The notes: generated by a model not told the origin, from the sequence alone. A DNA stretch of 64,000 bases from Clostridia bacterium (GCA_017528375.1 JAFXOY010000124.1:20209-84208); one strand, 5' to 3'. Shown: positions 31,800-64,000, numbered from the stretch's first letter. Numbers and translations are program-made.

Positions 31800-32288
31800 T
31801 TAAAAAGCGCTTCCATGCTATAAAACATAAGCATTTCCTATACAAATAGCATCACTTATATCATCATTAACATCTATATTATATTTTTTCTTAACAAGAT
31901 TTTTACTAGCTTGTTTTAATGTTTCTCGTTTAATCCCCCGCCCTGTCTTTATTCCACAAATCTTTCTCCACTAACTTGGTATATAAAACTAAATTTTTTG
32001 TTTATTTTTATTTAGCTCTATTGCAATTGCAGCTTGTAAATACATTAAAGCTTTAAAGGTTACTTGGTTATGTCTAACATCCTATGGAAGAACCTCTTCC
32101 ATAATAACATCGGTTGGATTGTATAAATCATATAACTATCTAATTCTTTTTACTGTTTTCTATATTCTTGTTAATGTATTACCAGAAACAGCAATACATT
32201 CATAATGAACCAGGGTGGTATTATCAAAAATTGCTACTCCAGAACTTGTAGTACTTCCATCTATTGCTAAAACTTTTATTTTACTCAT
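31800..32288 (-). CDS. ruvC: RuvC-like Holliday junction resolvase (TAG read as sense)
   Basis: ATG at 32288 follows GGAGG and the ORF ends at TAA 31800-31802. Six in-frame TAG were each frame-checked. Motifs: VLAIDGSTTSSG, MEEVLP, WRKICGI, DDISDAICIG. Confidence 0.7.
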
Positions 32289-32309
32289 TTCATGCCTCCT
32301 TATATTCTA

Positions 32310-32338
32310 AGTATAGCATAAAATTTTTAAAAAGTCAA
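32310..32338 (-). promoter_or_regulatory. Sigma-A type promoter upstream of ruvC-like gene
   Basis: On the minus strand: TTGACT, a 17-nt spacer, then TATACT. Confidence 0.6.
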
Positions 32339-32346
32339 AATTTTGA

Positions 32347-32377
32347 GCAAAAAAATAAGATGGCTTACGCCATCTTA
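32347..32377 (-). terminator. Rho-independent terminator after dut exon 2
   Basis: TAAGATGGC / GCCATCTTA stem with a 4-nt loop, followed by T7 on the minus strand. Confidence 0.7.
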
Positions 32378-32378
32378 A

Positions 32379-32576
32379 TTAATTAGTTCCAGTTGAACCA
32401 AAACCTTCTTTGCCTCTATTGGTGTCATTTAAATCATCAACTTCTTCAAATTTAATATAAATTTGTGGCATCAAAATAAATTGTGCAATACGCTCTCCAG
32501 AATTAATAACTTGAGGATCATTAGAATCATTGTGTAGTGCTACAATAACTTCTCCACGATAATCAGAATCAACTAC
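32379..32576 (-). CDS. dut: dUTPase exon 2 (VVDSDYRGE...GFGSTG)
   Basis: Track ORF 32379-32579 carries dUTPase motifs 3-5 (DSDYRGE, GERIAQ, RGKEGFGSTG). The exon is predicted to start at 32576, just after the intron-terminal G. Confidence 0.75.
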   Translation of the reverse strand, partial: VVDSDYRGEVIVALHNDSNDPQVINSGERIAQFILMPQIYIKFEEVDDLNDTNRGKEGFGSTGTN

Positions 32577-33715
32577 CATTTTGTTACCTTAAAGGCTTTT
32601 TATCCTTTAATTCTTATAATTTCTTATAAGTTCAGCATATCTTTTCACTCTTTAAGTGCTGCGGCCTCGTGGTAGGATTATATCTTTTCACCTACTATGC
32701 GTTGCCCCTGACTATACTTAATATAGCCTTCGGTTCGGATTAGCATATCATTTTGACTTAGCCTTCCCGCTTAATTCCGCAGTTTAATGTCGGCGTTATT
32801 TTTCTATAAAAGAACTTGTTTCAAGTAATAAATCTTCTAATTTTAAATCTTTATAATGTGTATAAGGTATTCTTATTAAAGGAATATTATTTTTTTTACA
32901 CCACTAAGATTTTAATAAATCGTGCTTATGAGTGTATTCATAATCAAAAATACTATCTTTTTTAAAATGCTGTTCTCCGTCATATTCTATAAGATATTCA
33001 TTATTAATAAAAAAATCAAAAGGTAATTCTTTTATATCTTTACAAGTAGCAAATTTTTTCTAAATCTAATAGGATATATTTGCTGCATCTAATATATCTG
33101 CAATTTTAACATTGCCTTTTGATATATTTGAATGTAATCCACAACTTAAGCTTCTACCAGATCGTAGAGATGTTCCTAAAACATCTTTTTCTGTGCCACA
33201 TTCACATTTACAATGCCAATAAATAACTCCTCCTGTATTTCTTTTATCTGTTTTATATAAAACAGTCCATTTACCAAAAACTTGTCCACAAATATCTATT
33301 TCTGTAGTATGAGAAGTGTTGTGTTCTTTACCTTTTAAATTTGAATCATACCAAATTTTTGTAATCATTCCTCTAGATACATTAAATTTTTTAGCTAATT
33401 CTGTAGATGTCATATCCTAATAATGCTATTTAATAAAATTTTTATCATTTTCAGATAACTTATATTCCTTATTTGAGTTTACATCATATCCAATTTTTTT
33501 TGCATGATTTAAAATTGAAGTTTTATTACAATTATAAAGTTCTGCCATTTTACGAGAACTTTTTAAATTTTCATAGTTTTTTATAAAATCTTCATTAGAA
33601 CCAAAATTAATTTTTTTAGCCATATTATATTCTCCTTTTTATTATGATATTATATTTAAAAAATATATAAGCCAAAATAATCAGATTTGTCCAATGAAAT
33701 CAAAATATTTTATTC
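32577..33715 (-). mobile_element. Group I intron (about 1139 nt) interrupting dut and carrying an endonuclease ORF
   Basis: The two dUTPase halves are separated by 1.1 kb. Exon 1 ends in U (..GTC GGT) and the intron ends in G (..AACAATG). GCCGAC at 32789-32794 (minus strand) can pair with the exon end GUCGGU, giving a U-G wobble. AAGATATAATCC at 32675-32686 (minus strand) resembles the conserved group I S element AAGAUAUAGUCC. The proposed CUGCGG/CCGCAG (minus-strand) pairing is long-range. Confidence 0.6.
32796..33623 (-). CDS. Intron-encoded homing-endonuclease-like protein (2 HTH, Zn-ribbon module, Vsr/PD-(D/E)XK-like nuclease); TAG read as sense
   Basis: Track ORFs 33426-33623 and 33066-33413 share a frame. 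With 5 in-frame TAG (frame-checked) the ORF runs to TAA 32796-32798. Motifs: WHCKCECG..SCG, FDFF..LIEYDGEQHF..IPLIRIPY. Confidence 0.65.
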
Positions 33716-33964
33716 ACCGACGCAATTAGTAGGTCGTAATCCCATTTTTGTCGCCAATCCGCTTCTTGCAAAAATCGCCCCCCAGTATCCATCAGGAATT
33801 TCCATTGATAATCCAGTTCCAACTTTTACTGTTTCATGCGGATGTATCCAAATTGGAAAATCTGTTGCTGCATATAAATCATAACCTGCGGCAGTTTCAC
33901 TACCGTGAAGGGGAGTTTTTGCTAAAACATTTAATTTTTTAATCCTTATCGTCTGATTACTCAT
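33716..33964 (-). CDS. dut: dUTPase exon 1 (MSNQTIRIKK...GLRPTNCVG)
   Basis: Track ORF 33710-33979. The likely start is ATG 33964, which overlaps the upstream stop. dUTPase motifs 1-2 are present (AAGYDLYA, ARSGLA). Joined to exon 2 the protein is about 148 aa. Confidence 0.75.
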
Positions 33965-34211
33965 AATCTGCCTCCACATATTCTGGTTCTAACTGACAAT
34001 AAGGTTCTTTCTCATCACAAAACTCTTTAGTAATTAAAACACGCCTCCACTCGTCAACAATTTCTCCCTTTTGTTTAAGAGTTTTAATTTCACTACTAGA
34101 TTTTGTAACAGTATACTGATTATTTTTCTTTGCTTCTTCAATCAATTTTCTTGCTTCTTCTTCTGAATCACATCGATACTGTTCAGTTACTTTAATTAAA
34201 TATCTACTCAT
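33957..34211 (-). CDS. Hypothetical protein (84 aa)
   Basis: Intact track ORF with a GAGGAG RBS. Confidence 0.5.
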   Translation of the reverse strand: MSRYLIKVTEQYRCDSEEEARKLIEEAKKNNQYTVTKSSSEIKTLKQKGEIVDEWRRVLITKEFCDEKEPYCQLEPEYVEADYE

Positions 34212-34222
34212 TTTATCTCCTC

Positions 34223-34462
34223 TTATTTATTTATATAAATATTAATATTACTATATTTTGTTTCAATTGGTTCTATAATTTTTTTGATATAATCTGGTTG
34301 TCCAAAAAGATGAATTTCTGTTAAACCTTCTAAAGACATTAAAAAATTAGATAGTTCAGATAAATCAGTATTTACTTTTCGAAACCCTGAAAACTATTTT
34401 TTTTCACTTATAAACACTGTTTGATTAACAGTAAAAGGATCAATTCTTACAACAGCCTACAT
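34223..34462 (-). CDS. Hypothetical protein (79 aa) with TAG as codon 2
   Basis: ATG 34462 follows GGAGGG. There are in-frame TAG at 34457-34459 and 34394-34396, and the ORF ends at TAA 34223-34225. Confidence 0.4.
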
Positions 34463-34474
34463 AATTATCCCTCC

Positions 34475-34864
34475 TTAGGTTTCTATTACAGCGTTGTCAT
34501 ATGGGAATAAATAATATGCGTGTGATTCTCCATCTATTCTAATCCAAATTTCAAAATTACCATCTTCTTGTTCTTCAATAGAAAGAACTTCCCCCCTATC
34601 AGTACAACATCCCAAACATTCTCTTGCTGCCACTCCAGGAGGGTTTTCATTTTGTTTGTTTTGGTTATACATATGAAAAATTGTAATATCACTTAATTCT
34701 CTACAATAGAGCATAGCATAAGCATCGCATTTCCAGTTGAGAAAATCTTCAATCTTTTTTTGTGCTGATGCTAGCTCAAGATGAGTCATTGGTTTAAAAT
34801 GCTGTTCACTATTCATAAGTTGTTTATTTGCATCATATAGTGTTCCCATAGAAATTTCTGCCAT
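34475..34864 (-). CDS. Hypothetical protein (129 aa)
   Basis: Intact track ORF with an AGGAG RBS. Confidence 0.5.
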   Translation of the reverse strand: MAEISMGTLYDANKQLMNSEQHFKPMTHLELASAQKKIEDFLNWKCDAYAMLYCRELSDITIFHMYNQNKQNENPPGVAARECLGCCTDRGEVLSIEEQEDGNFEIWIRIDGESHAYYLFPYDNAVIET

Positions 34865-34889
34865 ATTTTTTCTCCTTTATAATATTTTA

Positions 34890-35378
34890 TCATAAAATCT
34901 TTTCTTTGTCAAGTTCTATAATCTTTTGATTAGAACTTCCTCTTAATGGAAGGGTTATATCTCTTAAATCTTTTTCATATCTTCCATCAATAAGATAATT
35001 TGCTTGTTTTAAAATTTGATTAATTCTTTTATCTTTTTTATTTAATAATTCAGCAAAAGTATAACCAGACCAAATATATATTTTTATATTAGGATAGGCG
35101 GTGCGGACGGCGGTGATGATTGTCAAGACTCCGTCTAGGTTTTCATCACATAGAGGCTCACCACCTAAAACACTAAAGTTACGTTCTATACCATTGGCGC
35201 ATATAGCTTTAACTATCTGTCCTTTTAAATCTGCGGGCGCAGGCTATCCACCTTCAAAGTCCCAGGTTTCAGGATTGAAACATTCAGGGCAGTGATGGGG
35301 ACAACCTTGGACCCAAAGTGACACACAGACGCCGCCGCCATCAGTAAAATCATTTTTATTTAAGCCTGCAAGTCGCAT
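34890..35378 (-). CDS. nrdG: Anaerobic ribonucleotide reductase activating protein (radical SAM), one in-frame TAG
   Basis: ATG 35378 to TAA 34890-34892, in frame with track ORF 34890-35126 through the TAG at 35244-35246. Motifs: VSLWVQGCPHHCPECFNPETW, LGGEPL, LRGSSNQKI. Confidence 0.8.
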
Positions 35379-35381
35379 ATG

Positions 35382-35963
35382 TTAATTTCCTTCCTTTTTT
35401 AGCATATTTTCTACAAAAATTGCTCCCAATGAATTTCCCACTATAACCATTAAAAATTTCAACCAATTTATTGGGTCTGTTGTTACTAATAAATATGGGA
35501 AATCTGCAATACAGTGTTCTGCTCCAATTAAAATAAAAATCATAATAGCCAGAATAGTAATAATATAATTTTTAGCTTTAACTGCAAAATGGATTAGTCC
35601 CCCGCAGAATATACCACCAATTGCCATATCAACAAAATCTTTACTAAATTTTATTTGTGCTTTTGCTTGTAACATAGTAATAAAATCTTGATTCATTATT
35701 CCATAAATAAAAACACAGAATAAAATTCCTAATAAATTACCTATTAAAACTACAAAAAGAAATTTACTTTTTTCTTTTGTTAAATCATAAAAACCAATTT
35801 TACCCGTATATAAAGGTAAACCCAATTCTATAATTGTTAATAATCCAAAACTAAAGAACATTGCTCCTAGTTCAGGGACACCAGAGAGGGTGTTAATAAT
35901 AACACCCAATCCAATTAAAATACCTGCTATAACTGATGTATTCATTACTGTCATTCTTTCCAC
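35382..35963 (-). CDS. Compact six-helix formate/nitrite transporter (FNT)-like membrane protein
   Basis: Track ORF. ATG 35954 (an ATGA overlap with the nrdD stop) is an alternative start. Six hydrophobic segments are visible. GAEHCIADF resembles the FNT motif FEHS(I/V)ANM and LPLYTGK resembles ELFTGN. Confidence 0.55.
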   Translation of the reverse strand: MERMTVMNTSVIAGILIGLGVIINTLSGVPELGAMFFSFGLLTIIELGLPLYTGKIGFYDLTKEKSKFLFVVLIGNLLGILFCVFIYGIMNQDFITMLQAKAQIKFSKDFVDMAIGGIFCGGLIHFAVKAKNYIITILAIMIFILIGAEHCIADFPYLLVTTDPINWLKFLMVIVGNSLGAIFVENMLKKEGN

Positions 35964-38191
35964 CCTCTTAACATTTTTGAATGTTTAAATCTCATTTCTG
36001 TTTCTTGCTGTTTTCCTAAATTAAAAGCTGTTTTATAATCACCTGTTAAATATCCTGTTACTCTACGTAATCTTTGAATTTTATCGCTGCCGCATTGAGG
36101 GCATACATCATTTATTTCATCTGTATATCCACAATTTGTACACATATCATTTGGAACATTGATTGCGAAATAAGGAATGTCTTTATCCATAGCATAGTTT
36201 ACAATAGTTTCTAATGCTTCTATGTTATTTTTAACTCCGCTATCAAGTTCAACATAAGTGATACATCCTGCAGAACTATAACCTGTTAATTGACTTTCAA
36301 TATCAATTTTATCAAATGGACTCATTTCTTTCCATACTGGAACGTGCATTGAATTAGTAAAGAAATCATTTTCAGAAACATTAGGAATTTCTCCATATTT
36401 TGCTTTAAAACGAGTCATTGCAGTGTAACATAAGTTTTCTGCTGGGGTATAGTATACTCCAAAATTAAGTTTATAATCTTGTTTAAACTCTGCGCACCTA
36501 TCTTTAAATAATTGTTCGATACGTTTAGCCAGTTTCATACCTTCTTCTGTTGTATGATCTGTTTTAATTAATATTTGTAAGCATTCAGCTAAACCCAATT
36601 GTCCTATAACTATTGTTCCGTGTTTAAGTGCAGAACGAATACCCTCTTCAGGAATATAACCTTCCATTGTACCATTTTCATACATAAATTTTGCAGAAGC
36701 TGGGGATTGCGAACAAATATATTCAAATCTTTCAAGAAGCATATCTTTTGCTTGATGAATTTTTTCATCTAATAAGTCCATAAAATTAGCAATTCCATCG
36801 CGAGCATCAAAATAATCTGTATTTTTATATTTTTCTGTAGCTTCCATAGCAATAGTAGGAAGAATAATGGTTACTGGACAAATATTTCCTCTACCGTCTT
36901 TGAGTTGACCGAATCCGTTGATATCAAAACCATTTGCCGTTCTACATCCCATCGTAGAGAAATAGGTACGGGGATCATTTCTATCGTAGCCAATATTTCC
37001 TGTCCAGTCGACATTTGCGTAGTTAGGATATAACCTTTTTGCAGTGCTTTCTAATGCCAATTTGTACAAGTCGTAATTGGGATCTCCAGGGTCACGATTA
37101 ACTCCTTTCATACATTGAAAAATTCCACATGGGAATATAGGTGTCTTGTGTAATCTACCATTACCTTCAATTGAGGCGTCGAGCAATGCTTTAATTATCA
37201 TACGCCCTTCTGGTAAAGTACAAGTACCGTAATTAATTGAAGTGAACGGCAACTGGTTACCAGAGCGACTTTGTAACGTGTTGAGATTATGATACATGCC
37301 TTCTACCGCCTGATATGTTTCTCGTGTTGTCATATCTATTGCGTACTGATATACTTTTGGAAATTTTTCAGTAAAATGTTTATTGTCAATAGAAAGCTAA
37401 GTTAAATATTCCCAATCTAATTCATCTTTACACCCAGCAATATAATGATAACCATCTTTCCAATGTTTTACAAAACTCTTTCTAACATACGGAACCATAG
37501 TCCAATCAAGATGGCTTGCCGAAACACCACCAAATTGATTTAACGATTGAAGCTGAAATAGTACCGCTACAAGCTGAAACGCTGTATTTATGGAATTAGC
37601 CGGCCGCACATCAGTCTGCCTTGTATTAAATCCATTAGCTAATAATTTATCAAAAGGAATGGTTAAGCAATTATGGTCACCAAGTGCATAATGGTCTAAA
37701 TCGTGAATATAAATTTCATTATTTCTATGTAAATCTGCCATCCATTTTGGCATACAATAATTTAATGCATATTCTTTTAGATTTGCGGAACTGGCTTCAC
37801 CCATCCTTCCGCCAAAAGACTCTTCATCTACGTTGGCATTTTGCATTGTATTATCTTCTACATTAAGTTTCTTTTCAATGTTTTTTACATAAGTTCCATT
37901 AGCTTCTCTAGCTTTGGTTCTCTCTTGTCTATATGTAATGTATGCTTTAGCTACATCTTTACGTTTAGTAGACATTAATCCTTTTTCTACTAAGTCTTGA
38001 ATTTCTTCAATGGATAAAATTCCATCATAGTCAATACAGTATCCTTCAATATAATCTGCTATATTATTAGCTTTATCAATAGCATAATCTGTTAATTTTC
38101 CATCAACAGCCGCAAAAGCCTTTAATATAGCATTTTTAATTTTCTAAGGGTTAAAGTCTACTAATCTATTATCTCTTTTTTTAATTTTCAT
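35951..38191 (-). CDS. nrdD: Anaerobic (class III) ribonucleoside-triphosphate reductase, two in-frame TAG
   Basis: ATG 38191 follows GGAGGA. Track ORFs 37397-37975 and 35951-37333 share its frame and are joined by the TAG at 37397-37399; a second TAG lies at 38144-38146 in the N-terminal ATP cone (KKRDNRLVDF). The C-terminus has the Zn-ribbon CTNCG..CPQCG and the glycyl-radical motif RRVTGYL. Confidence 0.85.
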
Positions 38192-38255
38192 ATAAAATCC
38201 TCCTAGGTATTTAAAATTATTTTAAGGAAACATAATATATTAAAATTAAAGTATA

Positions 38256-38864
38256 TTAATTATTTTTTCCTGTCCAATTTATTATTTTAGAAATCAAATC
38301 ATCTAATACAGGTTGAATTTCTTCGTCAGTATTATTTTCTATTGTTTGATATATAAAATTAATTTTTTGAAAATCTTCTTTATCAGTTTGAAAGCGTCTA
38401 CATATTTCATAACAATCTGGATTTTTTTCACGCATTAGTTGTCTTATCAGTCTAAGTTTGTCATATGCATACACATAAATTGGAAGAACTTCACATTCTG
38501 AATTTTTTAATAGACTCTGTATTCCTTGAATATTAAATGTTCCGATATTTATTTTGTTTTTAACCAAATGGTCAATTGAGGTTCCGTACCACCACCCACG
38601 AAAACATTTAAATTCTAGCCATTTATGCATATTTTCCCAGTTCATAAACTCTTCTCCAGTTTGAATAAAATGATAGTCTATACCATCTTTTTCACCTTCT
38701 CGCGGAGGACGAGTGGTACAAGGGACAATTTTATGCAAATGTCCCTTGCCCCAAATTGTCTCCATTATCTTTCTTTGTATATAATCCTTGCCAGAACCCG
38801 CAGGTCCAAATAAAGCTACAATTTTATATTTATCCATATAATATTCCTCTTTATATTTATCCAT
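38256..38864 (-). CDS. Guanylate-kinase-like deoxynucleoside monophosphate kinase
   Basis: Track ORF. P-loop GPAGSGKD and the motif TTRPPREGEKDGIDYHF are present. ATG 38837 is an alternative start because of the 27-bp duplication. Confidence 0.65.
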   Translation of the reverse strand: MDKYKEEYYMDKYKIVALFGPAGSGKDYIQRKIMETIWGKGHLHKIVPCTTRPPREGEKDGIDYHFIQTGEEFMNWENMHKWLEFKCFRGWWYGTSIDHLVKNKINIGTFNIQGIQSLLKNSECEVLPIYVYAYDKLRLIRQLMREKNPDCYEICRRFQTDKEDFQKINFIYQTIENNTDEEIQPVLDDLISKIINWTGKNN

Positions 38865-38876
38865 ATAATATTCCTC
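38823..38876. repeat. Perfect 27-bp tandem duplication covering RBS, ATG and the first 5 codons of the kinase gene
   Basis: TTTATATTTATCCATATAATATTCCTC occurs at 38823-38849 and again at 38850-38876. Confidence 0.9.
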
Positions 38877-39051
38877 GATTACATTTTGGACATTTAATTA
38901 TAACAGTTTCATGAGGTTTTCTATTTTTAAATTTAATAATATTTCCACAAAAACAAAAAACACCATCTTGATACTCTCCAAATAATGAACCGTTCCAAGG
39001 AGAAGATATCATATCTTCTTCTGGAATTTGTCGAATTGAATTATTATTCAT
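38857..39051 (-). CDS. Small zinc-ribbon protein
   Basis: Track ORF 38857-39069. The likely start is ATG 39051, overlapping the end of the polymerase gene. Cys pairs: CFCG..CPKC. Confidence 0.45.
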   Translation of the reverse strand: MNNNSIRQIPEEDMISSPWNGSLFGEYQDGVFCFCGNIIKFKNRKPHETVIIKCPKCNRGILYG

Positions 39052-43021: not shown

Positions 43022-43054
43022 ACATTTTACCCCTTTTCTTAATTTTCTATATAT

Positions 43055-43083
43055 ATTATATCATAATTTTATAAAAAATGCAA
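43055..43083 (-). promoter_or_regulatory. Sigma-A type promoter upstream of dnaE, fused to a terminator hairpin
   Basis: On the minus strand: TTGCAT, a 17-nt spacer, then TATAAT. The -35 box is the 3' arm of the hairpin ATGCAAG..CTTGCAT (43078-43097), which is followed by a T-run. Confidence 0.6.
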
Positions 43084-43808: not shown

Positions 43809-43811
43809 TTT

Positions 43812-44132: not shown

Positions 44133-44155
44133 TTTTTTCCCTCATTAATGTTACT

Positions 44156-52221: not shown

Positions 52222-52222
52222 A

Positions 52223-53764: not shown

Positions 53765-53765
53765 A

Positions 53766-54269: not shown

Positions 54270-54298
54270 TTTTATTATTCCTTTTATTTTATACTAAA

Positions 54299-54327
54299 AT
54301 TATATCATAAAATTATAAAAAAATCAA
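54299..54327 (-). promoter_or_regulatory. Sigma-A type promoter fused to a terminator
   Basis: On the minus strand: TTGATT, a 17-nt spacer, then TATAAT. The -35 box overlaps the end of the hairpin at 54326-54348 and its T-run. Confidence 0.6.
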
Positions 54328-54348
54328 GGAGGGTTATCAACCCTCCTT
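54316..54348 (-). terminator. Rho-independent terminator at the end of the ATPase gene
   Basis: AAGGAGGGTT / AACCCTCCTT stem with the TGA stop in the loop. T7 follows on the minus strand. Confidence 0.65.
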
Positions 54349-55332: not shown

Positions 55333-55381
55333 ATTTTATCTCCTTTTGTTTTTATATTTAGAGGGGTTTAAGCCCCTCTAA

Positions 55382-56329: not shown

Positions 56330-56363
56330 TTTATTTTAAACTCCTTATTTATTTTATATATTT

Positions 56364-56392
56364 ATTATACTATAATTTTTTTTATTTGTCAA
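56364..56392 (-). promoter_or_regulatory. Perfect consensus promoter
   Basis: On the minus strand: TTGACA, a 17-nt spacer, then TATAAT. It begins 2 nt after the TAA of the upstream gene. Confidence 0.7.
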
Positions 56393-56394
56393 GT

Positions 56395-57348
56395 TTATGT
56401 TTTATTGCCACTGTTTCCATTCATACCTGTTTTATCAGAATGATAAAAATTAATCCAAAATTTTTCACGTTCATTTAATTTTTCTTTTGAACATTCTTCT
56501 AATAACTCAAAAGTAAATGTCCAAACTCCGTAATACTGCATTTTATTATATAATTTATTCGTAGCTGGAGCATCTATTCCTAATCCACATTTTATATGTG
56601 CTTTCCAACGATCTGATATATTAATACTTTGTCCAATATAGACCTACTCAGTATTATGATTTGTTATTTTATAAATACCACATTTTTTTGTGCCGCCAAG
56701 AACACGATTACATAAATCATTTGTTGCTTTAAGAATAAAAGCAGACCAAATTATTTTACTTACAAGAGAGGGATCATTTAAACGATGTTTAAAATTATTT
56801 AATTCTAAAATATCATTTAATTGATTGTCTGTTAAATTAAGAGAATAGAATAACCATTTATTATTTTCTTCTTGCTAGAGTAAACGTGCGGCGGTCGCTG
56901 CCTAAACAGCGTTTTTAACCTAGCTTAAGGCTTCTTCTACCTAGGTTTTCTAATTTAACATTTGGTTGATTCGAGTTGTTATTTCATTTTCTTTTTTGCT
57001 ATAAGCCTAGTCTAACGCTTGTTCATAAGATTGAAAAGCTAATGATGAAGATTCTTGCAAATTATTATATAGTGCATTCAGCCGTGTAGCCTTTTCCTCA
57101 ACTTCTTTATCTATTTCAGTTTTTAAATCATTTTTTTGTTGAGTTAATGAGAGAATTTCTGACTATCGATTTTTAATAGATTGCTGTAAATTGTTTAACT
57201 CTTTATAATTATTTTCAATAACTTTATTCTGTAATTCAATCTATTCATTTATTTTTTGGAGTTGCTAATTATTATCTACTTTTTTTCGATATGATAGATA
57301 TAATATAAACAGGCTTGCACATATTAAAACAACACTTAAATATATCAT
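56395..57348 (-). CDS. Membrane-anchored coiled-coil protein with C-terminal GIY-YIG nuclease domain (TAG read as sense)
   Basis: ATG 57348 follows AGGAGG and the ORF ends at TAA 56395-56397, with 10 in-frame TAG (frame-checked). It has an N-terminal hydrophobic helix (IYLSVVLICASLFILYL) and a C-terminal GIYKITN..VYIGQS..RWKAH..ERE.FWI. Confidence 0.6.
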
Positions 57349-57362
57349 AAATACCTCCTGAT

Positions 57363-57398
57363 AGAAAAATTGGGTTAAGTTATTAAATAGCTTAACCC
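57363..57398 (-). terminator. Rho-independent terminator
   Basis: GGGTTAAG / CTTAACCC stem with an AATTTTT run on the minus strand. Confidence 0.5.
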
Positions 57399-57425
57399 TT
57401 TTAATATCAGATAGTAAGAGTTTTA

Positions 57426-57734
57426 TTACTCACACTCATATTCAAAAGCATGTCCTGCTTCGGTAAGTTTGATAAACTTAACTGTATCATGTTTAATTTT
57501 ACCATCTTCCATTTCGGTTTCAATTTCACCTTCAACTCTTTCAATCAGAGGAACGATAACCTTTTCATCACCGATCTCTTCACGATGTCTCTGAAAAGCT
57601 GCGGTAAGAATACCATTTACCTGCTTTGGGTCCAAGCTAAGAGCTGCAGCAATATCCTTGGCAGTGATATTCTCATCTTCGTGTGCCTTTACATATTCAA
57701 ATACATTAAAACTATTTACTGCTAATTTCTTCAT
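57426..57734 (-). CDS. Hypothetical acidic protein (102 aa)
   Basis: Intact track ORF with a GGAG RBS. Confidence 0.55.
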   Translation of the reverse strand: MKKLAVNSFNVFEYVKAHEDENITAKDIAAALSLDPKQVNGILTAAFQRHREEIGDEKVIVPLIERVEGEIETEMEDGKIKHDTVKFIKLTEAGHAFEYECE

Positions 57735-57778
57735 TTCTAAATCTCCTTAAATTAATATTTATTTTTGTTTTCTTATAT

Positions 57779-57807
57779 ATTATATTATAAATTTTTTGAA
57801 AAGTCAA
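57779..57807 (-). promoter_or_regulatory. Sigma-A type promoter
   Basis: On the minus strand: TTGACT, a 17-nt spacer, then TATAAT. The TGA stop of the upstream ORF (57804-57806) lies inside the -35 box. Confidence 0.65.
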
Positions 57808-57995
57808 CAATTTCCGAGCAATTCTAGAACGGCATCGTTTAATTCCAAACTCTCTTCAATGTCTAATTTTCCCATGATATTTTCAATTCTGCGCATGTAC
57901 GATTGAATATATTTGTCCTTGCTCGAATTTTGTATTTTCATTTCTAGGTCCGCTACTTCTTTAGCGAGTTCTTGAAGTTCTTCTTTACTTTTCAT
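57804..57995 (-). CDS. Small coiled-coil protein (63 aa), possibly leaderless
   Basis: Intact track ORF. There is no Shine-Dalgarno sequence, and the ATG lies 6 nt downstream of a TATAAT box. Confidence 0.45.
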   Translation of the reverse strand: MKSKEELQELAKEVADLEMKIQNSSKDKYIQSYMRRIENIMGKLDIEESLELNDAVLELLGNC

Positions 57996-58001
57996 AATAA
58001 T

Positions 58002-58030
58002 ATTATACTAAAAATTTTTAATGTTTTCAA
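58002..58030 (-). promoter_or_regulatory. Sigma-A type promoter
   Basis: On the minus strand: TTGAAA, a 17-nt spacer, then TATAAT. The ligase TGA stop (58027-58029) lies inside the -35 box. Confidence 0.6.
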
Positions 58031-59976
58031 GTTACTGAACATAATAACTGGAATTGTTCTTCTGTAATAATTGGAATATTCAATCTTTTTGCTGAAAGAT
58101 TCTTGGCGGAAGTTGAATCGGCATCGTTATTAATTAAATAGTTTGTATTCTTAGTTACAGAACCCGTTACTTTTCCACCTTTAGATTCAATAAAAGATTT
58201 TAATTCATCCCTATTCTTATAAAGTTTTACCTTTCCAGTAATTACAAATACTTTTCCTTCTAATTCGTTGCCGTTTGAAGAAGGGACCGCCGCCTCCTCA
58301 ATAATATATTTATCAAAAATCATATCCGCTTCAGTGTAATCAAATTTAAAAAGGTTATCAAGCATTACTTCGCCAATACCATCAATTTGATATAATCTAT
58401 CATCTCTTTCATCTATTGCTTTTCTAAAGGTTTTGTAATCTTTAAACTCATTAGCCAAAGCCTTAGAAGCAACCTTCCCTATAAGGGGGATTCCTAAAGC
58501 ACATAGATATTTATCAAATGAACAGACTTTAGCACTTTCAATAGCACTTAAAATTTTATTAACCGAAGCAATTCCAAAGCCAGGTTTTTTAAACCAATCT
58601 AAACGATGGGTATATAATGTAAAAATTTCATCTAAAGTTATTACCCATCCCCAACTATTAAGTTTTTGTAGAGTTGCTTTTGATAAACCTTTAATATCAA
58701 GTCCCTTTTTCCCACAGAAGTGGTCTAATTGATTAATAAATTGACAATCACAATTAGGATTAGTACAATATAAAAATTCAGTATTATATTCTTTTTTAAT
58801 CTTATTAGGGTCTCCACAATACGGACAATATTTAGGAATTTCAAAAAACTCAGGATTCATACCTGTTTTAGGAGGCTGAGCGTTCACAATTTGAGGAATA
58901 ATTTGATTCATTTTACAAACTTCAATCTCTTGTCCTAAATATGGAGTATCAAGAGTTTGCTTCATAATACTTATATTATGAAGACTTGCTCGTGAAACAA
59001 TTGTACCTTCAATTTCAACAGGATCAAAAATTGCAACAGGGGTTAAAATTCCTGTTCTTCCCATTGTCCATTCAATATTACGGAGATAGGATGTAACTGT
59101 TTCGTCGTAAAATTTATATGCTAATCCGCCTTTAAAATGGTGGTCTGTCTTACCAGCGTTCTCATACTCTTCAATATTATTATATTTAAAAACAAGTCCA
59201 TCAATAGGATATGCAGCGGCTTGCGCCAAATCTTTTAAGAAATCTATAATTTGATTTGGATTATTAGCATTTTCAAAGAATGGTACAACAGTAAATCCTA
59301 ATTTAATTAATTCTTCTAACTTTGCTCCAAGAGTATCCTTTTCAATTCCTTTTATACAATCCCATGCTACAAAAGTAAGGTTACGATTGTAGCACTCTTT
59401 ACTGTCTAGCAATCTAATGCTTCCACTTGCAAAATTTCTAGGATTCTTATACTGATCTTGAAAAGCTTCAAAATTTTTATAAGTACAAATTATTTCTCCG
59501 TCAATAATAATTTCATCTTTTATAGGAATTGTTTTAGGAATACTTTTCAAAGTTTTTGCATTATGAAAAATATCTTCTCCTGTTACCCCATCCCCCCTGG
59601 TTTCAGCACTAACCAATTTCCCATCCATATACCTTAATGAACAAGTTAGACCATCCATTTTACACATAGCAATCCAATCTTTGTTTTTAATAAAACCTTT
59701 AATTGTATTAAAATCTTTGGTTTTATCTAAAGAAAGCATAGGATGATTGTGTTTTACTTTCTTTAATTCTGATACAAAATCAAAATTAATAACATGAGTA
59801 GGAGAACCGTTTAAAACTTCTCCAGTTTCTAATTCTAGTTTATAAAGGTCAAAATACATATCATCCCACTCTTTATCAGAAATTAAAGGATGCCCCTCAT
59901 CATAAGCAGAGGTATAACGATTTAATTTATTAATTAAAATCATCATAGTCTTTTTTTGTTTGTCTGTTGCTGGCAT
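58027..59976 (-). CDS. ligA: NAD-dependent DNA ligase
   Basis: Track ORF 58027-60003; the likely start is ATG 59976 after GGAG. It has the adenylation motif CKMDGL, an OB fold, a Zn finger (CPYCG..C..C), HhH and a C-terminal BRCT (GKVFVITG). Confidence 0.85.
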   Translation of the reverse strand: MPATDKQKKTMMILINKLNRYTSAYDEGHPLISDKEWDDMYFDLYKLELETGEVLNGSPTHVINFDFVSELKKVKHNHPMLSLDKTKDFNTIKGFIKNKDWIAMCKMDGLTCSLRYMDGKLVSAETRGDGVTGEDIFHNAKTLKSIPKTIPIKDEIIIDGEIICTYKNFEAFQDQYKNPRNFASGSIRLLDSKECYNRNLTFVAWDCIKGIEKDTLGAKLEELIKLGFTVVPFFENANNPNQIIDFLKDLAQAAAYPIDGLVFKYNNIEEYENAGKTDHHFKGGLAYKFYDETVTSYLRNIEWTMGRTGILTPVAIFDPVEIEGTIVSRASLHNISIMKQTLDTPYLGQEIEVCKMNQIIPQIVNAQPPKTGMNPEFFEIPKYCPYCGDPNKIKKEYNTEFLYCTNPNCDCQFINQLDHFCGKKGLDIKGLSKATLQKLNSWGWVITLDEIFTLYTHRLDWFKKPGFGIASVNKILSAIESAKVCSFDKYLCALGIPLIGKVASKALANEFKDYKTFRKAIDERDDRLYQIDGIGEVMLDNLFKFDYTEADMIFDKYIIEEAAVPSSNGNELEGKVFVITGKVKLYKNRDELKSFIESKGGKVTGSVTKNTNYLINNDADSTSAKNLSAKRLNIPIITEEQFQLLCSVT

Positions 59977-59977
59977 A

Positions 59978-60250
59978 TTATACAATCTCCACATAAACTT
60001 CAATACAAGGAATAGTTACTTCTCCACCAAAAGTAATGTTAAAATCTTGTATATAACACTCTTTGTAGTTATATTCAGATGGTGAATCTTCTTTATCAAA
60101 ATATGTGTCAAAAGGAATTTCATATTTTTGCATTAAAAGATATTGTTTTAAAAATTCCTCTGGCTTTTCTGTATAAAAAGCTCTAATCATCATATCTTTT
60201 GAACTGTCTACTAGTTTAATTAAAGTTGTATTATGAATTAGACGATTCAT
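59978..60250 (-). CDS. Hypothetical protein (90 aa)
   Basis: Intact track ORF with a GGAG RBS. Confidence 0.5.
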   Translation of the reverse strand: MNRLIHNTTLIKLVDSSKDMMIRAFYTEKPEEFLKQYLLMQKYEIPFDTYFDKEDSPSEYNYKECYIQDFNITFGGEVTIPCIEVYVEIV

Positions 60251-60300
60251 TTTTTATATATCTCCTTTATTTTTCTAAATATATTATATCAAAAATTCTT

Positions 60301-60337
60301 AAAAAAATAAAGTGGTAGATGTATTATATCTACCACT
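60301..60337 (-). terminator. Rho-independent terminator after the gyrA-like gene
   Basis: AGTGGTAGAT / ATCTACCACT stem. T-runs flank it on both strands. Confidence 0.7.
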
Positions 60338-60342
60338 TTTTA

Positions 60343-62673
60343 TTACAGGACCACAAGAGAAGAAACAGTGCTTCGTTCTATCATTTTTGTTCCTGAACCA
60401 GCTCTGGTTTGAACAGGAATTTCTTCGGATGAAATACAAATTGAATTTGGCTTTCCTACTAACAAAAGAGGGGTAGATGTTTGGAGGGCGGCGGCACCCG
60501 CTATTTCATCTCCAAGGTCCAGTTTCATACAGGATACACCGCGGCCGCCGCGATTTTGAATAACCACATCAGACGCTAATATTCTCTTACCTTTTCCTGC
60601 TTTTGTTACTATTGCTATACTGCTATCTTTTAAAACAGGAAAAGCTGATATAACCTCATCACCATCTTTAAGTCCAATTCCTTTAACACCACTGGTTAAT
60701 CTGCCTATTGCTTTAATATCATCTGTAGGAACTTTAATAATCATTCCTTTTCGAGTGACCATAATAACTTCTTCTTTATTATCCATGAAAACAACATTAA
60801 TTAAACTGTCTCCTTCTTTCAGTTTAATAGCTTGAATACCAGTAGTTTTTTTCATGGTTGAGTATTCTTCAAACTTTGTCTTTTTAATTAAACCATTCTT
60901 AGTAAAGAACACTACATTTTCAGCGGTGTTGTCTAATGTACTAATTTCCTGTACCTCTTCTCCTGGTGCAAATGGTAAAATGGTCTTTATATTTGTTCCT
61001 TTTGCTACATTATTTCCTTCAGGAATTTTATCTACTCCAAGCCTATACATTTTACCAGCTGACGTGAAAATCATAAGGGTTTCTGTAGTGTTAGTAGATA
61101 GCGCCATAAGAGTTTCTTTTTCTACAGATTTAATTCCTGTACCACGTCTATGCTGTACTTTAAAAGTCTTTTTTGGTACTCGCTTAATATCTCCACCATG
61201 TGTAATGACTACTACAACATCTTCGGGGACTATATCTACTTTTTCTTTTTCATCTTTTGTTTCCTCAACTTGAGCTATTTCAGTTTTTCGTTCGTCACCA
61301 TATTTTTTAGTGATGTTCCCAAGTCTCAATTTTAAAACATCTTCTTGTTCTGATTTATTGGCAAGAATCTTTTTTAAATCATTAATTTGCTCTTTAAGAT
61401 TCTCAGCTTCCTTTTCTAATTCAATTTTTTCCAGTTTAGCAAGAGAAGATAATCTCATAGCCAAGATAGCCTTAGCCTGGTTTTCTGTAAAATTATACCT
61501 AGAGATAAGATTTTCTTTTGCGGCCGCCGCACTTTCAGATGATTTAATAAGAGCAATAATATTATCAATATCTTCAAGTGCTTTTAATAAACCGTTAACA
61601 ATTTCTAATCTATCTTCTGCTTTTGCTAAATCAAATTTACATTCTCGTACAATACATTCAATATTATGGTCTACATAAATTTTTATCGCTTCTTTGAAGT
61701 TAAGTTCAGTCGGAGTTTTGTCAATAAGTGCCACTTGATTATAGCTAAACGATGTCTGAAAGTTTGTTTTTGCATATAATTTTTTAACAACTAATTCTGG
61801 GTCAATTCCTTTATCACAGGTTACAACAATTCTAATCTTTTTAGAACTTTCATCATGAATATCAGAAACTCCTTCAATTTCTTTCTTTTCACAAGCTTCT
61901 CCAACTTGTGAAATTAATCCTTCTATTGTTTCTCCATAAGGAATTTCATAAAAAATTATTTTATCTTTTTCAATGTTATACCTTGCTCTGAGTTTAACAC
62001 TTCCATGACCAGTTTCCATAATCTTTGGCATATCTTCTTTATTAATAATAACTCCGCCAGTAGGAAAGTCTGGATATACGGGAGAGATTTTTTCTCCTTT
62101 TAAGTATTCATTAATTGCTCTTGTAACATCATTAAGATTGTGTGGAGCCCAGTTACATGCTATGGCGACTCCAATTCCTGTGTTTGGATTACATAAGAGA
62201 TTTGGAAAGATTGCTGGAAGTGTTACAGGCTCATCCAATGTTTCATCATAGTTTGGAACAAAATTTACGTTTTGTTTTTTAATTCCATATAACAAGCCAT
62301 CTTCTGCTACTTTTGAAAGACGCGCTTCTGTATAACGTGGAGCAGCGGGTCCATCGCCCGCAATATTACCATTATTACCGTGCCAATCTATAAGAGGATA
62401 CCTCATAACCCATGGCTGAGATAATCTTACCATTGCTCCATATATAGAACTATCGCCATGAGGATGATAACGTCCCATAACATCACCAACAATACGTGAA
62501 GATTTAACATGAGGTTTAGACGATGTTCTTCCTTCTTCAAATGTTGACCATAAAATACGCTTAGCAACGGGTTTAAGACCTGATTTTGCATCAGGTATTG
62601 CACGGTCTGAATTTACAGCTACGGCATATTCTATAAAATTTGTACTTAATTCTTGAGTTAAATCATTCTGCAT
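60343..62673 (-). CDS. gyrA: Type IIA topoisomerase subunit A (GyrA/ParC-like)
   Basis: Intact 776-aa ORF. Motifs: RYHPHGDSSIYGAMVRLSQPW, the catalytic-Tyr region AAPRYTEARL, and C-terminal beta-pinwheel repeats. Confidence 0.85.
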   Translation of the reverse strand: MQNDLTQELSTNFIEYAVAVNSDRAIPDAKSGLKPVAKRILWSTFEEGRTSSKPHVKSSRIVGDVMGRYHPHGDSSIYGAMVRLSQPWVMRYPLIDWHGNNGNIAGDGPAAPRYTEARLSKVAEDGLLYGIKKQNVNFVPNYDETLDEPVTLPAIFPNLLCNPNTGIGVAIACNWAPHNLNDVTRAINEYLKGEKISPVYPDFPTGGVIINKEDMPKIMETGHGSVKLRARYNIEKDKIIFYEIPYGETIEGLISQVGEACEKKEIEGVSDIHDESSKKIRIVVTCDKGIDPELVVKKLYAKTNFQTSFSYNQVALIDKTPTELNFKEAIKIYVDHNIECIVRECKFDLAKAEDRLEIVNGLLKALEDIDNIIALIKSSESAAAAKENLISRYNFTENQAKAILAMRLSSLAKLEKIELEKEAENLKEQINDLKKILANKSEQEDVLKLRLGNITKKYGDERKTEIAQVEETKDEKEKVDIVPEDVVVVITHGGDIKRVPKKTFKVQHRRGTGIKSVEKETLMALSTNTTETLMIFTSAGKMYRLGVDKIPEGNNVAKGTNIKTILPFAPGEEVQEISTLDNTAENVVFFTKNGLIKKTKFEEYSTMKKTTGIQAIKLKEGDSLINVVFMDNKEEVIMVTRKGMIIKVPTDDIKAIGRLTSGVKGIGLKDGDEVISAFPVLKDSSIAIVTKAGKGKRILASDVVIQNRGGRGVSCMKLDLGDEIAGAAALQTSTPLLLVGKPNSICISSEEIPVQTRAGSGTKMIERSTVSSLVVL

Positions 62674-62866
62674 TATTTATTACCTCTTTTAAAATTTGTT
62701 TAGCGATTTTAGTAGCCGTATCTGATGATAATTTCCAATTTTGATATTTTCTATGGCAATCATCACATTCATTATCTTGATATTTATCCCAATTTCCATA
62801 TTCACAATTATCACAATAACAATAACATAATTCATTTATTAAAATTTCTTTTATTTTTTCTTCCAT
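62663..62866 (-). CDS. Cys-rich small protein (67 aa)
   Basis: Intact track ORF between the topoisomerase subunit genes. Confidence 0.45.
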   Translation of the reverse strand: MEEKIKEILINELCYCYCDNCEYGNWDKYQDNECDDCHRKYQNWKLSSDTATKIAKQILKEVINNAE

Positions 62867-62887
62867 AATATTATACCTTATTTTTTA

Positions 62888-63145
62888 TTAAAAATCAAAT
62901 CCATATTTTTGATAATAAGGATTATTTGCACGCTCCCTTTTTAGGTAAGCTTCTTGTGCAAGATCAGCTCCGCACATAGGACAAAAATTAATTTTCATAA
63001 CTATTCCACTATAATAATAATCGTCACATTCTACCCATAATCCAAAAGTGCTTTCTCCTGTTTGAGCTATTTCTGGTTCTTGCTCCCAAGAATGATGCTC
63101 TTCTATATATTTAATATCTTTAATGTTGTTACAAAAATCACACAT
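62888..63145 (-). CDS. Cys-rich small protein (85 aa)
   Basis: Intact track ORF with motifs CDFC..CPMCG. Confidence 0.45.
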   Translation of the reverse strand: MCDFCNNIKDIKYIEEHHSWEQEPEIAQTGESTFGLWVECDDYYYSGIVMKINFCPMCGADLAQEAYLKRERANNPYYQKYGFDF

Positions 63146-64000
63146 TATATTCTGCCTCCTCTGAATGTTCCTGAATATACTTCTTTCTCGGAAGTATTGC
63201 GGTTCCCATTAAATCATCAAACAGTTTTCCTGCAGCCATACTATCTTCAATCGTAATCTGTTTAATAATTCTATTCTTAGGATCGATTAATGTTTCTTCT
63301 GTTTCTTCAACAGACATTTCTCCTAAGCCCTTTAAACGATTTACTGTATATTTACCAGTATGAGTTTTACGGAATTTTTCTAATTCCTCATCGTTTTTAA
63401 GGTACTTATAACCCTTGTTTCCAGCCAGTGTGATTTTATAAAGGGGAGGGACTCCCGCATAAACATGTCCTTCATAAATTAACTGTGGACAGAAGTTCCA
63501 AATAAATGTATAAAATAGGTTCTTAATATGCGCGCCATCAACATCAGCATCGCTCATAATAATAATTTTATCATACCGAAGGTCATTAGCATTATATGTG
63601 ACCTTCATTGTTTTAGTATCTATTTTTAAACCAAATGCATCAATCATTGTCATAATTTCAGCATTTTTCTGAATCTTATCAATAGTAGCCTTATGTACAT
63701 TTAAGATTTTACCACGTACTGGAAGCACTGCCTGGAATTCATTATTACGGGCAGACTTAAGATTACCTGATGCAGAATCTCCCTCTGTGATATAAATTTC
63801 ACAACAAGACCTATCTTTGCTATAGCAGTCAGCAAGTTTACTGTCAATCTTCAGAACCTTTTCTTTTTTCTTGCCTTGTTCTCTAGCTTTTTCACGAGCC
63901 TTTTTAGCCGCCTCTCTAGCTTTTTTAGCATTGATTGCCTTATCTGCAATTAATTTAATTTCTTTTTCATTATTATTAAGCCAATAAGCAAGCTGCTCTC
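63138..64000 (-). CDS. gyrB: Type IIA topoisomerase subunit B (GyrB/ParE-like), C-terminal part; 5' end outside window
   Basis: Track ORF 63138-63728 continues in frame to the window edge. Motifs: TOPRIM EIYITEGDSASG, PVRGKILNV, IMSDADVDGAHI, PPLYKI. Confidence 0.8.
   Translation of the reverse strand, partial: EQLAYWLNNNEKEIKLIADKAINAKKAREAAKKAREKAREQGKKKEKVLKIDSKLADCYSKDRSCCEIYITEGDSASGNLKSARNNEFQAVLPVRGKILNVHKATIDKIQKNAEIMTMIDAFGLKIDTKTMKVTYNANDLRYDKIIIMSDADVDGAHIKNLFYTFIWNFCPQLIYEGHVYAGVPPLYKITLAGNKGYKYLKNDEELEKFRKTHTGKYTVNRLKGLGEMSVEETEETLIDPKNRIIKQITIEDSMAAGKLFDDLMGTAILPRKKYIQEHSEEAEYNV

Follow-up and report, generated by a model that had tools for sequence, protein, structure and literature searches.

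The window analysed here is a stretch of 64,000 nucleotides from a Clostridia bacterium (GCA_017528375.1 JAFXOY010000124.1:20209-84208). It is part of a ~130 kb SPbeta-like phage in which TAG is a sense codon, and the use of this codon is under gene-specific selection that sorts the genes into three tiers, from strict exclusion in the core of the replication machinery to a high level in most virion genes, the lysis enzymes and several DNA-processing genes. As judged from alignments with related phages, TAG here most likely encodes glutamate rather than glutamine.

The window has a G+C content of 31%, and its genes form two divergent blocks with a junction near 31.75 kb, where the GC skew switches. 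Two overlapping ENA contigs match the window with 2 and 8 mismatches and jointly amount to a genome of ~130 kb. The phage is carried by ENA ERZ27256869 and by related samples from rumen or gut. The NCBI copy of the genome is a separate contig of 129,983 bp in a 'Clostridia bacterium' metagenome-assembled genome. Its proteins are fragmented by standard-code gene calling, e.g. MBR3673968.1 covers 71 amino acids (aa) of a 705-aa protein. Open reading frames (ORFs) were called with TAA and TGA as the sole stops. Once TAG is read through, long ORFs rich in this codon emerge, with ~304 in-frame TAG in the window, 117 of them in the tape measure gene (3393 aa) and 49 in a second large ORF (2262 aa). 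Matches to Pfam and PHROG families reach their full length only under TAG readthrough. TAA is the main stop codon and ends 45 of the 63 curated genes. The phage carries both the Yon/Yom virion proteins and the Yor replication module with the alpha subunit of DNA polymerase III (PolIIIα), by which we assign it to the SPbeta-like phages. Public gene calls on near-identical contigs contain the SPbeta-specific Pfam families YonB, YonD_N, YonG_N, YomU_Tube, YomV_2nd, YomW, YomO, YorF and Phage_SPbeta_YorH, and the PolIIIα gene resembles SPbeta yorL at the DNA level. The phage's relatives in culture, by DNA as well as by protein comparison, belong to the SPbeta-like phages and infect Bacillus, Enterococcus and Staphylococcus.

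The replication module occupies the minus strand from 31800 to 64000. In its 41 minus-strand genes we counted 41 TAG over 836 glutamate-class codons (GAA, GAG and TAG, hereafter Glu-class). The TAG codons were redistributed by permutation with the number of Glu-class codons in each gene held fixed. The observed heterogeneity between genes (G = 133) was matched by none of 20,000 permutations. The TAG-free genes together hold 580 Glu-class positions, a figure that none of the 20,000 permutations reached (mean 230, maximum 411). The outcome was the same when gene length was used in place of Glu content. Off-frame TAG trinucleotides are equally common in both sets of genes (13.9 per kb in TAG-free vs 15.5 per kb in TAG-containing genes), so base composition is not the cause either. 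Chance and composition were thus ruled out as the cause of the split.

An earlier sequence-only reading of this stretch had divided the replication module into TAG-free genes, translatable under the host code, and TAG-containing ones. It had named an explanation by gene length and composition alone as the result that would speak against it, and the permutations gave no such explanation. The division itself is real, but it is graded rather than binary, with NrdD and NrdG at 2-9% against ~31% in late genes. Its table of in-frame TAG was reproduced throughout except for the GT8 glycosyltransferase, which has five TAG rather than four. Its list of TAG-free genes held for the core replisome with a correction for the DnaG-type primase, which carries one TAG two codons short of TAA; the DnaG product is the same under either code to within 2 residues. 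The two TAG of DnaB both precede Met15, from which the 513-aa protein of the public gene call starts. The gene identities were confirmed by Pfam and PHROG annotation for RuvC, dUTPase, NrdG, FNT, NrdD, the guanylate-kinase-like deoxynucleoside monophosphate (dNMP) kinase, the Dda-like helicase, DHH/RecJ, GT8, primase, DnaB, AAA_24/Sak4, GIY-YIG, LigA, GyrA and GyrB. The dUTPase exons, the dNMP kinase and 18 small ORFs are TAG-free as well.

The split is non-random, gene-specific and kept across about 15-20 relatives of the TAG=Glu type (see below). We expressed TAG use in relatives as the rate TAG/(GAA+GAG+TAG), pooled over those classed as TAG=Glu. The first tier is strict exclusion. It comprises PolIIIα (0 TAG and 1,951 GAA/GAG in 20 genomes), GyrA (0 and 840), LigA (0 and 775), GyrB (0 and 624), Dda (0 and 413), DnaG (0 and 412 in the aligned part), DnaB (5 and 677), YorH (0-1 TAG) and YorF. 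To the same tier belong the surroundings of the phage transfer RNA (tRNA) cluster, where 11 of 12 genes are TAG-free, a block of 23 small, early-looking genes left of the virion module with one TAG in total, and the three most abundant virion proteins. The second tier has sporadic TAG at about 2-10% of Glu-class codons and consists of NrdD (rate in relatives 0.024), NrdG (0.084), FNT (0.11, with TAG in 2 of 6 relatives), Sak4 (0.09-0.13, orthologs with 1-6 TAG) and the dNMP kinase. An HNH/homing-endonuclease-like gene, HE323, is likewise intermediate in relatives (0.17; 15 TAG vs 74 GAA/GAG). The third tier lies at the late-gene level of 20-55% and includes most virion genes, the lysis enzymes and five genes embedded in the replication module: RuvC (0.56; 4-9 TAG in 9 of 9 genomes), the GIY-YIG nuclease gene (0.43; 4-21 TAG in 15 of 15), the RecJ-like exonuclease (0.22; 3-19 TAG in 16 of 16), GT8 and a homing-endonuclease ORF. 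Within the window, the ratio of TAG to Glu-class codons is 0.31 in virion genes vs 0.049 in the replication module and zero in the core replisome.

The conservation of this pattern bears on a historical explanation, in which the TAG-free genes would be recent arrivals by horizontal transfer from standard-code relatives or from the host and would have had no time to acquire TAG. Many members of the family do use the standard code and share this gene set and its arrangement, and modules are shuffled between relatives. However, an identical set of genes lacks TAG across about 15-20 TAG=Glu genomes, in which PolIIIα is only 61-82% identical to that of the window, while the neighbouring RecJ, RuvC and GIY-YIG genes are TAG-rich in every one of them. 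Repeated recent import of exactly one set of genes is implausible. As these genomes differ by 18-39% in the PolIIIα protein, the pattern is better ascribed to maintenance by selection than to recency, and we consider transfer a very improbable cause.

To determine the meaning of TAG, we used 80 loci around the capsid gene, 44 of them without any in-frame TAG, and scored the columns that are at least 80% conserved in those 44. Orthologs were searched with TAG translated as Q, so any bias of the method would favour glutamine, and the multiple alignments were made with a neutral placeholder at TAG. At conserved columns the TAG codons of the window face E in 34 cases, D in 4, H in 1, P in 1 and Q in none. 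Over all residues opposite TAG the frequencies are E 0.51, D 0.12, K 0.08 and Q 0.06, which match the profile opposite the GAA/GAG codons of the window (E 0.49, D 0.12, K 0.08, Q 0.05) and differ from that of CAA/CAG. The log-likelihood of the TAG identity is -207.5 for Glu vs -290.0 for Gln. The codons found in relatives opposite TAG are GAA (39%), GAT (10%) and GAG (9%), and those opposite Glu codons of the window are the same three at 41%, 10% and 8%. Moreover, an invariant Glu column of RuvC, which we take to be a catalytic Glu, is written as TAG in the relatives L004, L007 and L011, and the second Glu of the 'EEK' motif of RecJ is written as TAG in 10 relative genomes. As a control, the same test yields Gln for the loci L124, L161 and L074 and for the published code-15 phage Phass-1 (Q in 32 of 42). 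Our initial assumption that TAG encodes Gln (code 15) was therefore rejected. A Gln/Lys signal in loci L250 and L275 came from spurious antisense ORFs and was discarded.

The family thus holds standard-code, TAG=Gln and TAG=Glu lineages. Its related contigs in IMG/VR number more than 300. We consider it probable, if well short of certain, that an SPbeta-like phage clade, probably with Clostridia/Bacillota as hosts, has reassigned UAG to glutamate by means of a phage tRNA with the anticodon CUA, tRNA(CUA), and that its sister lineages read the codon as Gln or keep the standard code. In the literature searched, mostly without subscription journals, no report of TAG→Glu in any phage or bacterium was found, and phage papers gave TAG→Gln only; provisionally, this is an unreported and probably new variant of the code. 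The part that we expect to surprise a specialist is the TAG→Glu reading, together with the presence of three code states within a single syntenic family. If the reading is true, the pipelines now used for annotation (prodigal-gv, code 15) translate these genomes wrongly, and code-15 translations in public databases carry hundreds of wrong residues per genome. Public entries for the proteins of this phage, among them P0001 and P0009, have Gln at every TAG (code 15); they were matched exactly with Gln at TAG, which was the sole translation tried.

The window contains no tRNA genes, and ~200 related loci, centred on PolIIIα, the capsid gene or GyrA, gave none either. The 705-aa tail protein, used as a query for further related loci, gave a single match. 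Arrays of 22-28 tRNA genes were found further out in relatives. A tRNA(CUA) is present in the arrays of L275 (18165-18241) and L276 (16817-16889), both of which are classed as TAG=Glu by alignment. The genome of the window phage itself has a cluster of 10 tRNAs outside the window (Met, Leu, Trp, Pro, Glu, Ser, Thr, CUA, Gln and Asn), in which the tRNA(CUA) lies ~30 kb upstream of gyrB. This tRNA scores 45.6 bits with the Rfam tRNA model (gathering score 29) and folds into a cloverleaf with a long variable arm. Its D-arm (GACAAGCGGTTTAAGTC) is that of the L276 suppressor and of the tRNA-Glu(UUC) in relative L280. Its first acceptor pair is C1-G72, which is found also in the L276 and L278 suppressors, the latter at L278 10570-10645. 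The probable Gln-type suppressors of L279 and L252 have UGGGG… with a U1-A72-like or unpaired first position, as in tRNA-Gln. The tRNAs most similar to it in overall sequence are of the Glu or Gln type, with identities of no more than 0.65-0.74. These features are suggestive of a Glu isotype, but not decisive.

Several further elements were seen around the suppressor. A tRNA-like element with an insert of ~30 nt in the anticodon arm (Rfam) lies beside it at L288 13818-14012 on the minus strand, and adjoins a sub-threshold Y-RNA-like (YrlA) match with 29.7 bits vs a gathering score of 69. An apparent 5′ half of a tRNA-Glu-like gene is located ~60 nt upstream of the tRNA(CUA). No Theta-like or hepatitis delta virus-like ribozymes were found beside the suppressor. 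In more distant relatives there are tRNAs with a UCA anticodon, reported as 'SeC' by ARAGORN (L060 21109-21203 and L254 3508-3583). These may be TGA suppressors, in which case the family may include TGA-recoded members.

A route to the glutamate meaning can be proposed from the tRNA biology of the presumed hosts. Most Bacillota lack glutaminyl-tRNA synthetase. Their non-discriminating glutamyl-tRNA synthetase (GluRS) puts Glu on both tRNA-Glu and tRNA-Gln, and GatCAB amidates only tRNAs with the features of tRNA-Gln (U1-A72 and the D-loop). Since amidation is restricted in this way, the amino acid delivered by a CUA suppressor would depend on its body, with Glu expected from a Glu-type and Gln from a Gln-type one. 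In the window phage, the host GluRS would charge the tRNA(CUA), and GatCAB would leave its Glu un-amidated, given the Glu-type D-arm and a C1-G72 pair instead of the U1-A72 of tRNA-Gln. Whether a suppressor means Glu or Gln could then hinge on the acceptance of the Glu-charged tRNA by the host GatCAB through the first acceptor pair and the D-arm. If true, a few tRNA mutations would let a phage lineage switch the meaning of a codon. If confirmed, the case would add a variant to the known genetic codes and suggest a simple biochemical route for a flip between Gln and Glu via the indirect GluRS/GatCAB pathway.

The host itself presumably uses the standard code, given that early genes strictly exclude TAG and that the cultured relatives infect Bacillota. 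Were the host to read UAG as an amino acid, the TAG pattern would be ordinary codon bias with no switch during infection. The 117 TAG of a single ORF, which need very efficient decoding, would suit such a host. However, the exclusion from the replisome is strict and conserved (0 TAG in >5,000 Glu codons), which is unexpected for an ordinary codon, the phage has its own tRNA(CUA), and the cultured relatives in the family infect Bacillota with the standard code. We therefore give this explanation hardly any weight, and less than any other considered here.

With a standard-code host, gene-specific exclusion of TAG could act as a translational timer, as the sequence-only reading had suggested. Early in infection, release factor 1 (RF1) of the host would terminate at UAG and only TAG-free genes would yield full-length protein. 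As the phage tRNA(CUA) accumulates, the TAG-containing ORFs would become translatable. The delay would fall on DNA-cutting and DNA-processing enzymes and on virion and lysis functions, even if these are co-transcribed with early genes from host-type promoters. A second, independent pressure would be the cost of and demand for suppressor tRNA, which would keep TAG out of the most highly expressed late genes. We favour this combination, in which timing acts on the replisome and suppressor demand or cost on the most abundant late proteins, as the probable explanation, held with moderate confidence, since a pure timer leaves the TAG-free genes of the capsid, a 193-aa protein and the tail tube unexplained. 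In favour of the timer are the non-random split, a core replisome and small early-looking genes compatible with the standard code, the phage's own tRNA(CUA) and the mixed transcription units; the three TAG-free virion genes and the graded tiers are the part that it does not cover.

The transcription units matter for this argument and were delimited by consensus matches to promoters and terminators only. The number of such matches is no higher than in shuffled sequence for 31000-50900, and higher for 44100-64000 (144 vs 106 ± 9). Many matches of the σA type lie in intergenic gaps of the replication module. The GT8 and RecJ-like genes stand behind a perfect host-type consensus promoter, so a translational delay is the simplest way to hold them back. 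The -35 box of this promoter match is held in the 3′ arm of the terminator-like hairpin after DnaG, i.e. terminator and promoter overlap. The TAG-free Dda gene starts 8 nt after GT8-RecJ with no predicted promoter between them. The stretch upstream of the GIY-YIG gene holds just a hairpin (57398-57372) and a ribosome-binding site and matches no promoter, so the gene is probably co-transcribed with the TAG-free orf102. The claim that the boundary between the two kinds of genes runs through single operons is thus probable for GT8-RecJ/Dda and for orf102/GIY-YIG, as far as consensus matches go. The example originally given for it, nrdD/FNT/nrdG, is the weakest and carries no weight, as FNT has only six Glu codons and the probability of finding no TAG in it is 0.74.

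The virion module is where the second pressure becomes visible. It had been claimed that this whole module waits for amber suppression. That claim is wrong, since in the window no TAG is present in the genes for the major capsid protein YonB, for the 193-aa protein encoded before it and for the tail tube protein YomU. In relatives, the three genes have 0.6-2.4% TAG across 20-33 genomes. TAG makes up ~31% of Glu-class codons in the rest of the module, and TerL (0.31), YonG (0.33), portal (0.22) and YomV together span 0.22-0.33 in relatives. TAG-free capsid and tube genes inside a late module imply that abundance matters as well as time. They might even suggest that cost is all there is, i.e. 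that TAG decoding is less efficient or error-prone and the codon is removed where output or fidelity matter and drifts up elsewhere. Such an explanation fits the capsid, 193-aa and tube genes, which are TAG-free within the late operon both here and in 20-33 relatives, as well as the graded rather than binary distribution and the lack of a 5′ bias of the first TAG. It does not fit the failure of abundance to sort the genes, with TerL at 31%, portal at 22% and YonG at 33% vs zero in PolIIIα, LigA and primase. The suppressor tRNA sits, moreover, among TAG-free genes, and TAG, at 31% of Glu-class codons in late genes, is well above GAG at ~15%, which is hard to reach via drift from GAG alone. Cost without a timer is therefore a possible but unlikely account.

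A number of observations weigh against the two-pressure explanation or against the glutamate meaning attached to it. The capsid, 193-aa and tube genes belong to the late class and still lack TAG, so part of the pattern must have a cause other than a timer. Low-copy late enzymes tolerate TAG and low-copy early enzymes do not, which is a further point left unexplained by a pure timer. The first TAG of a gene is not nearer to the 5′ end than expected by chance (P about 0.13). The 117 TAG of the tape measure imply near-complete suppression and a strong late change in termination, and no factor disabling RF1 was found. Sak4 and HE323 switch tier, with 0 TAG in the window and TAG in relatives. The precedence of TAG-free genes and the timer itself are what we infer from the pattern, and the identity of the amino acid is drawn from alignments. 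Finally, the long variable arm of the tRNA(CUA) is not typical of tRNA-Glu.

SPbeta-type phages are temperate, and the TAG codons might thus serve as a safeguard of lysogeny, blocking leaky prophage expression of nucleases, lysins and virion genes, instead of timing the lytic cycle. The TAG-rich genes of the replication module are DNA-cutting enzymes, and recoding has been proposed as a lysogeny switch by Borges et al. (bioRxiv 10.1101/2021.08.26.457843). Such a role is nevertheless improbable here: no integrase or repressor was seen in roughly 115 kb inspected, from -15.3 to 99.5 kb on the window scale, the NCBI genome is a separate contig and not within a longer bacterial one, and the TAG-free capsid genes go unexplained by a safeguard too. 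Immediately upstream of gyrB, the same strand carries a lysis cassette (L081 4767-7408, equivalent to 65.3-67.9 kb of the window scale, minus). Its amidase has 5 TAG, the peptidoglycan-binding protein 5 and the SH3 protein 3; TAG is absent from the holin and from a membrane protein of 84 aa. In the two lysins TAG accounts for 0.29-0.38 of Glu-class codons.

The dUTPase gene is split in its motif III by an insertion of 1.1 kb that carries the homing-endonuclease-like ORF. The joined dUTPase matches the Pfam dUTPase family end to end (110.7 bits). Of 37 relatives, 35 have the gene in one piece, and in L004 and L005 it is split. The insertion, whose ORF the sequence-only reading had called an intron endonuclease, gave no match to the Rfam group I and group II intron models even at E <= 1, and no Rfam family reached its gathering score in the window. 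The inserted ORF has weak, sub-cutoff matches to DUF5889/DUF2726 and is paralogous to HE323, which matches the HNH/homing endonuclease families of PHROG. Both proteins have a common C-terminal nuclease-like domain (…FDF.I…EYDG.QHF…IP.IRIPY), with 0 TAG in HE323 vs 5 in the inserted ORF. The GIY-YIG gene stands between orf102 and the gene for a protein like single-stranded DNA-binding protein (SSB) throughout the family, including the standard-code members, in which it has 0 TAG; it is thus a resident gene, not a sporadic selfish element. The notion that the selfish nucleases wait for suppression applies unevenly, as HE323 has no TAG in the window and GIY-YIG is no sporadic invader. Many small ORFs (43659-52221 on the minus strand and 30753-30977 on the plus strand) end in Glu runs (…AEEEE, …GEEE, …CEEE, …KEEEK, …KEEEEE), likely because the GAGGAG ribosome-binding site of the next gene sits in the 3′ end of the preceding ORF. 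The coordinates of the features are collected in Table 1.

Table 1. Features of the phage genome, with positions in the window unless another locus is named, and their in-frame TAG codons
Feature	Position	Strand	In-frame TAG	Remarks
Virion module	3-31727	+		TerL fragment, portal, YonD, YomW/V/O, tape measure, 2262-aa protein
193-aa protein before capsid gene	4497-5078	+	0	31-33 TAG=Glu relatives: 4 TAG, 305 GAA/GAG
Major capsid protein YonB	5098-6180	+	0	31-33 TAG=Glu relatives: 5 TAG, 891 GAA/GAG
Tail tube YomU	10879-11874	+	0	relatives: 7 TAG, 279 GAA/GAG
RuvC-like resolvase	31800-32288	-	6	among 11 Glu-class codons
Promoter-like site upstream of RuvC	32338-32310	-		paired with the terminator-like hairpin
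Hairpin upstream of RuvC	32377-32356	-		terminator-like
dUTPase pieces	33710-33964 and 32379-32579 (region 32379-34015)	-	0	both pieces TAG-free
ORF inside split dUTPase	32796-33623	-	5	homing-endonuclease-like
Small ORF	34223-34462	-	2	
NrdG	34890-35378	-	1	
FNT-like membrane protein	35382-35954	-	0	only 6 Glu codons
NrdD	35951-38191	-	2	codons 16 and 265
PolIIIα (YorL-like)	39044-42988	-	0	1314 aa; 101 Glu codons; 77 orthologs found
Small ORF	43812-44132	-	1	
HE323	44156-45127	-	0	HNH/homing-endonuclease-like
Dda-like SF1 helicase	45132-46313	-	0	
RecJ-like/YorK exonuclease	46322-48142	-	6	
GT8 glycosyltransferase	48139-48846	-	5	
Promoter match before GT8	48915-48887	-		TTGACA-17-TGnTATAAT, perfect match
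Hairpin after DnaG	48931-48904	-		intrinsic-terminator-like
DnaG-type primase (phrog_47)	48928-50079	-	1	codon 382/383 (48934-48936), then ATA TAA
Small ORF	50082-50360	-	1	
DnaB	52223-53764	-	0 from Met15	
YorH/'DnaD-like'	53766-54269	-	1	167 aa; TAG at 54090-54092
Sak4-like AAA_24 ATPase	54337-55332	-	0	
YorF/SSB-like	55382-56329	-	0	
Promoter match after GIY-YIG, before SSB-like gene	56392-56364	-		12/12 consensus
GIY-YIG gene	56395-57348	-	10	29% of its Glu-class codons; transmembrane + coiled-coil + GIY-YIG nuclease
orf102	57426-57734	-	0	
LigA	58027-59976	-	0	Pfam
orf90	between LigA and GyrA (58027-62673 block)	-	0	
Hairpin after GyrA	60339-60309	-		terminator-like
GyrA	60343-62673	-	0	Pfam
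GyrB, C-terminal part	63138-64000	-	0	gene runs past the window; full 637 aa with 0 TAG seen in L081
tRNA(CUA)	L288 14349-14439 (~94.1-94.2 kb on window scale)	same as replication genes		ARAGORN and Rfam

Regarding known systems, the closest are gut phages with recoded structural and lysis genes, standard-code replication genes and their own suppressor tRNA, described in crAss-like, Garnet, Amethyst, Agate, Topaz and other groups, for which regulation of late genes and lysis was proposed (Borges et al., bioRxiv 10.1101/2021.08.26.457843). The sequence-only reading was right that the timer idea had been put forward for recoded phages. Gating of late functions by a reassigned stop is thus already published, and the window phage is a well-documented new example of it, not its discovery. 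It resembles the phages of Borges et al. in the reassignment of a stop with a presumed standard-code host, with reassigned stops in frame within intact genes, in its own suppressor tRNA(CUA), in the enrichment of the codon in structural and lysis genes, with the capsid, 193-aa, tube and holin genes as exceptions, and in its depletion in the replication genes and absence from the replication machinery. It differs from them in that TAG aligns with Glu and not with Gln, in the gene-by-gene mosaic within both the replication and the virion module, in the exemption of the most abundant virion proteins, and in a TAG-free holin next to two lysins with TAG.

Phass-1 ('Phassvirus', OQ749652.1; PMC10607447), of about 136 kb, belongs to the same broad family and has a major capsid protein 52% identical to that of the window phage. 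Like the window phage it has PolIIIα, NrdD/G and dUTPase and uses TAG in virion genes and some DNA-processing genes, and it has a large tRNA array and tRNA-Sup(CTA) genes. It was published as TAG→Gln (PMC10607447). Two of its suppressor genes lie directly upstream of nrdD, where the window has no tRNA. These two genes are 88 and 72 nt long (OQ749652.1 62445-62610, L168 12445-12610), and a third is in the main array. In several suppressors of the family (Phass-1, L277 and L272) the variable arm is long and bears a CUCUGAAG motif in its loop; the arm of the window phage's suppressor is long too, without the motif.

Bacillus phage SPbeta has the Yon/Yom/Yor families in common with the window phage, as well as a YorL-like PolIIIα, a YorK-like RecJ and a similar genome size. 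SPbeta uses the standard code, whereas the window phage has in addition a tRNA cluster with a CUA-anticodon tRNA, and the window alone contains about 300 TAG in frame. The nuclear code of peritrich ciliates (NCBI table 30, TAA/TAG→Glu) is, to our knowledge, the sole established code that reads TAG as glutamate. That code is eukaryotic and genome-wide and reassigns TAA too, whereas in the window phage only TAG is read through, TAA terminates 45 of 63 genes and the reassignment is confined to part of the genome; a code of the peritrich type was therefore rejected. The family makes the timer idea unusually testable, as it has standard-code, TAG=Gln and TAG=Glu members in one gene order, and TAG-rich and TAG-free genes side by side behind the same host-type promoters add to this. 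Its TAG-free capsid and tube genes, moreover, reveal a second pressure on the TAG pattern, separate from timing.

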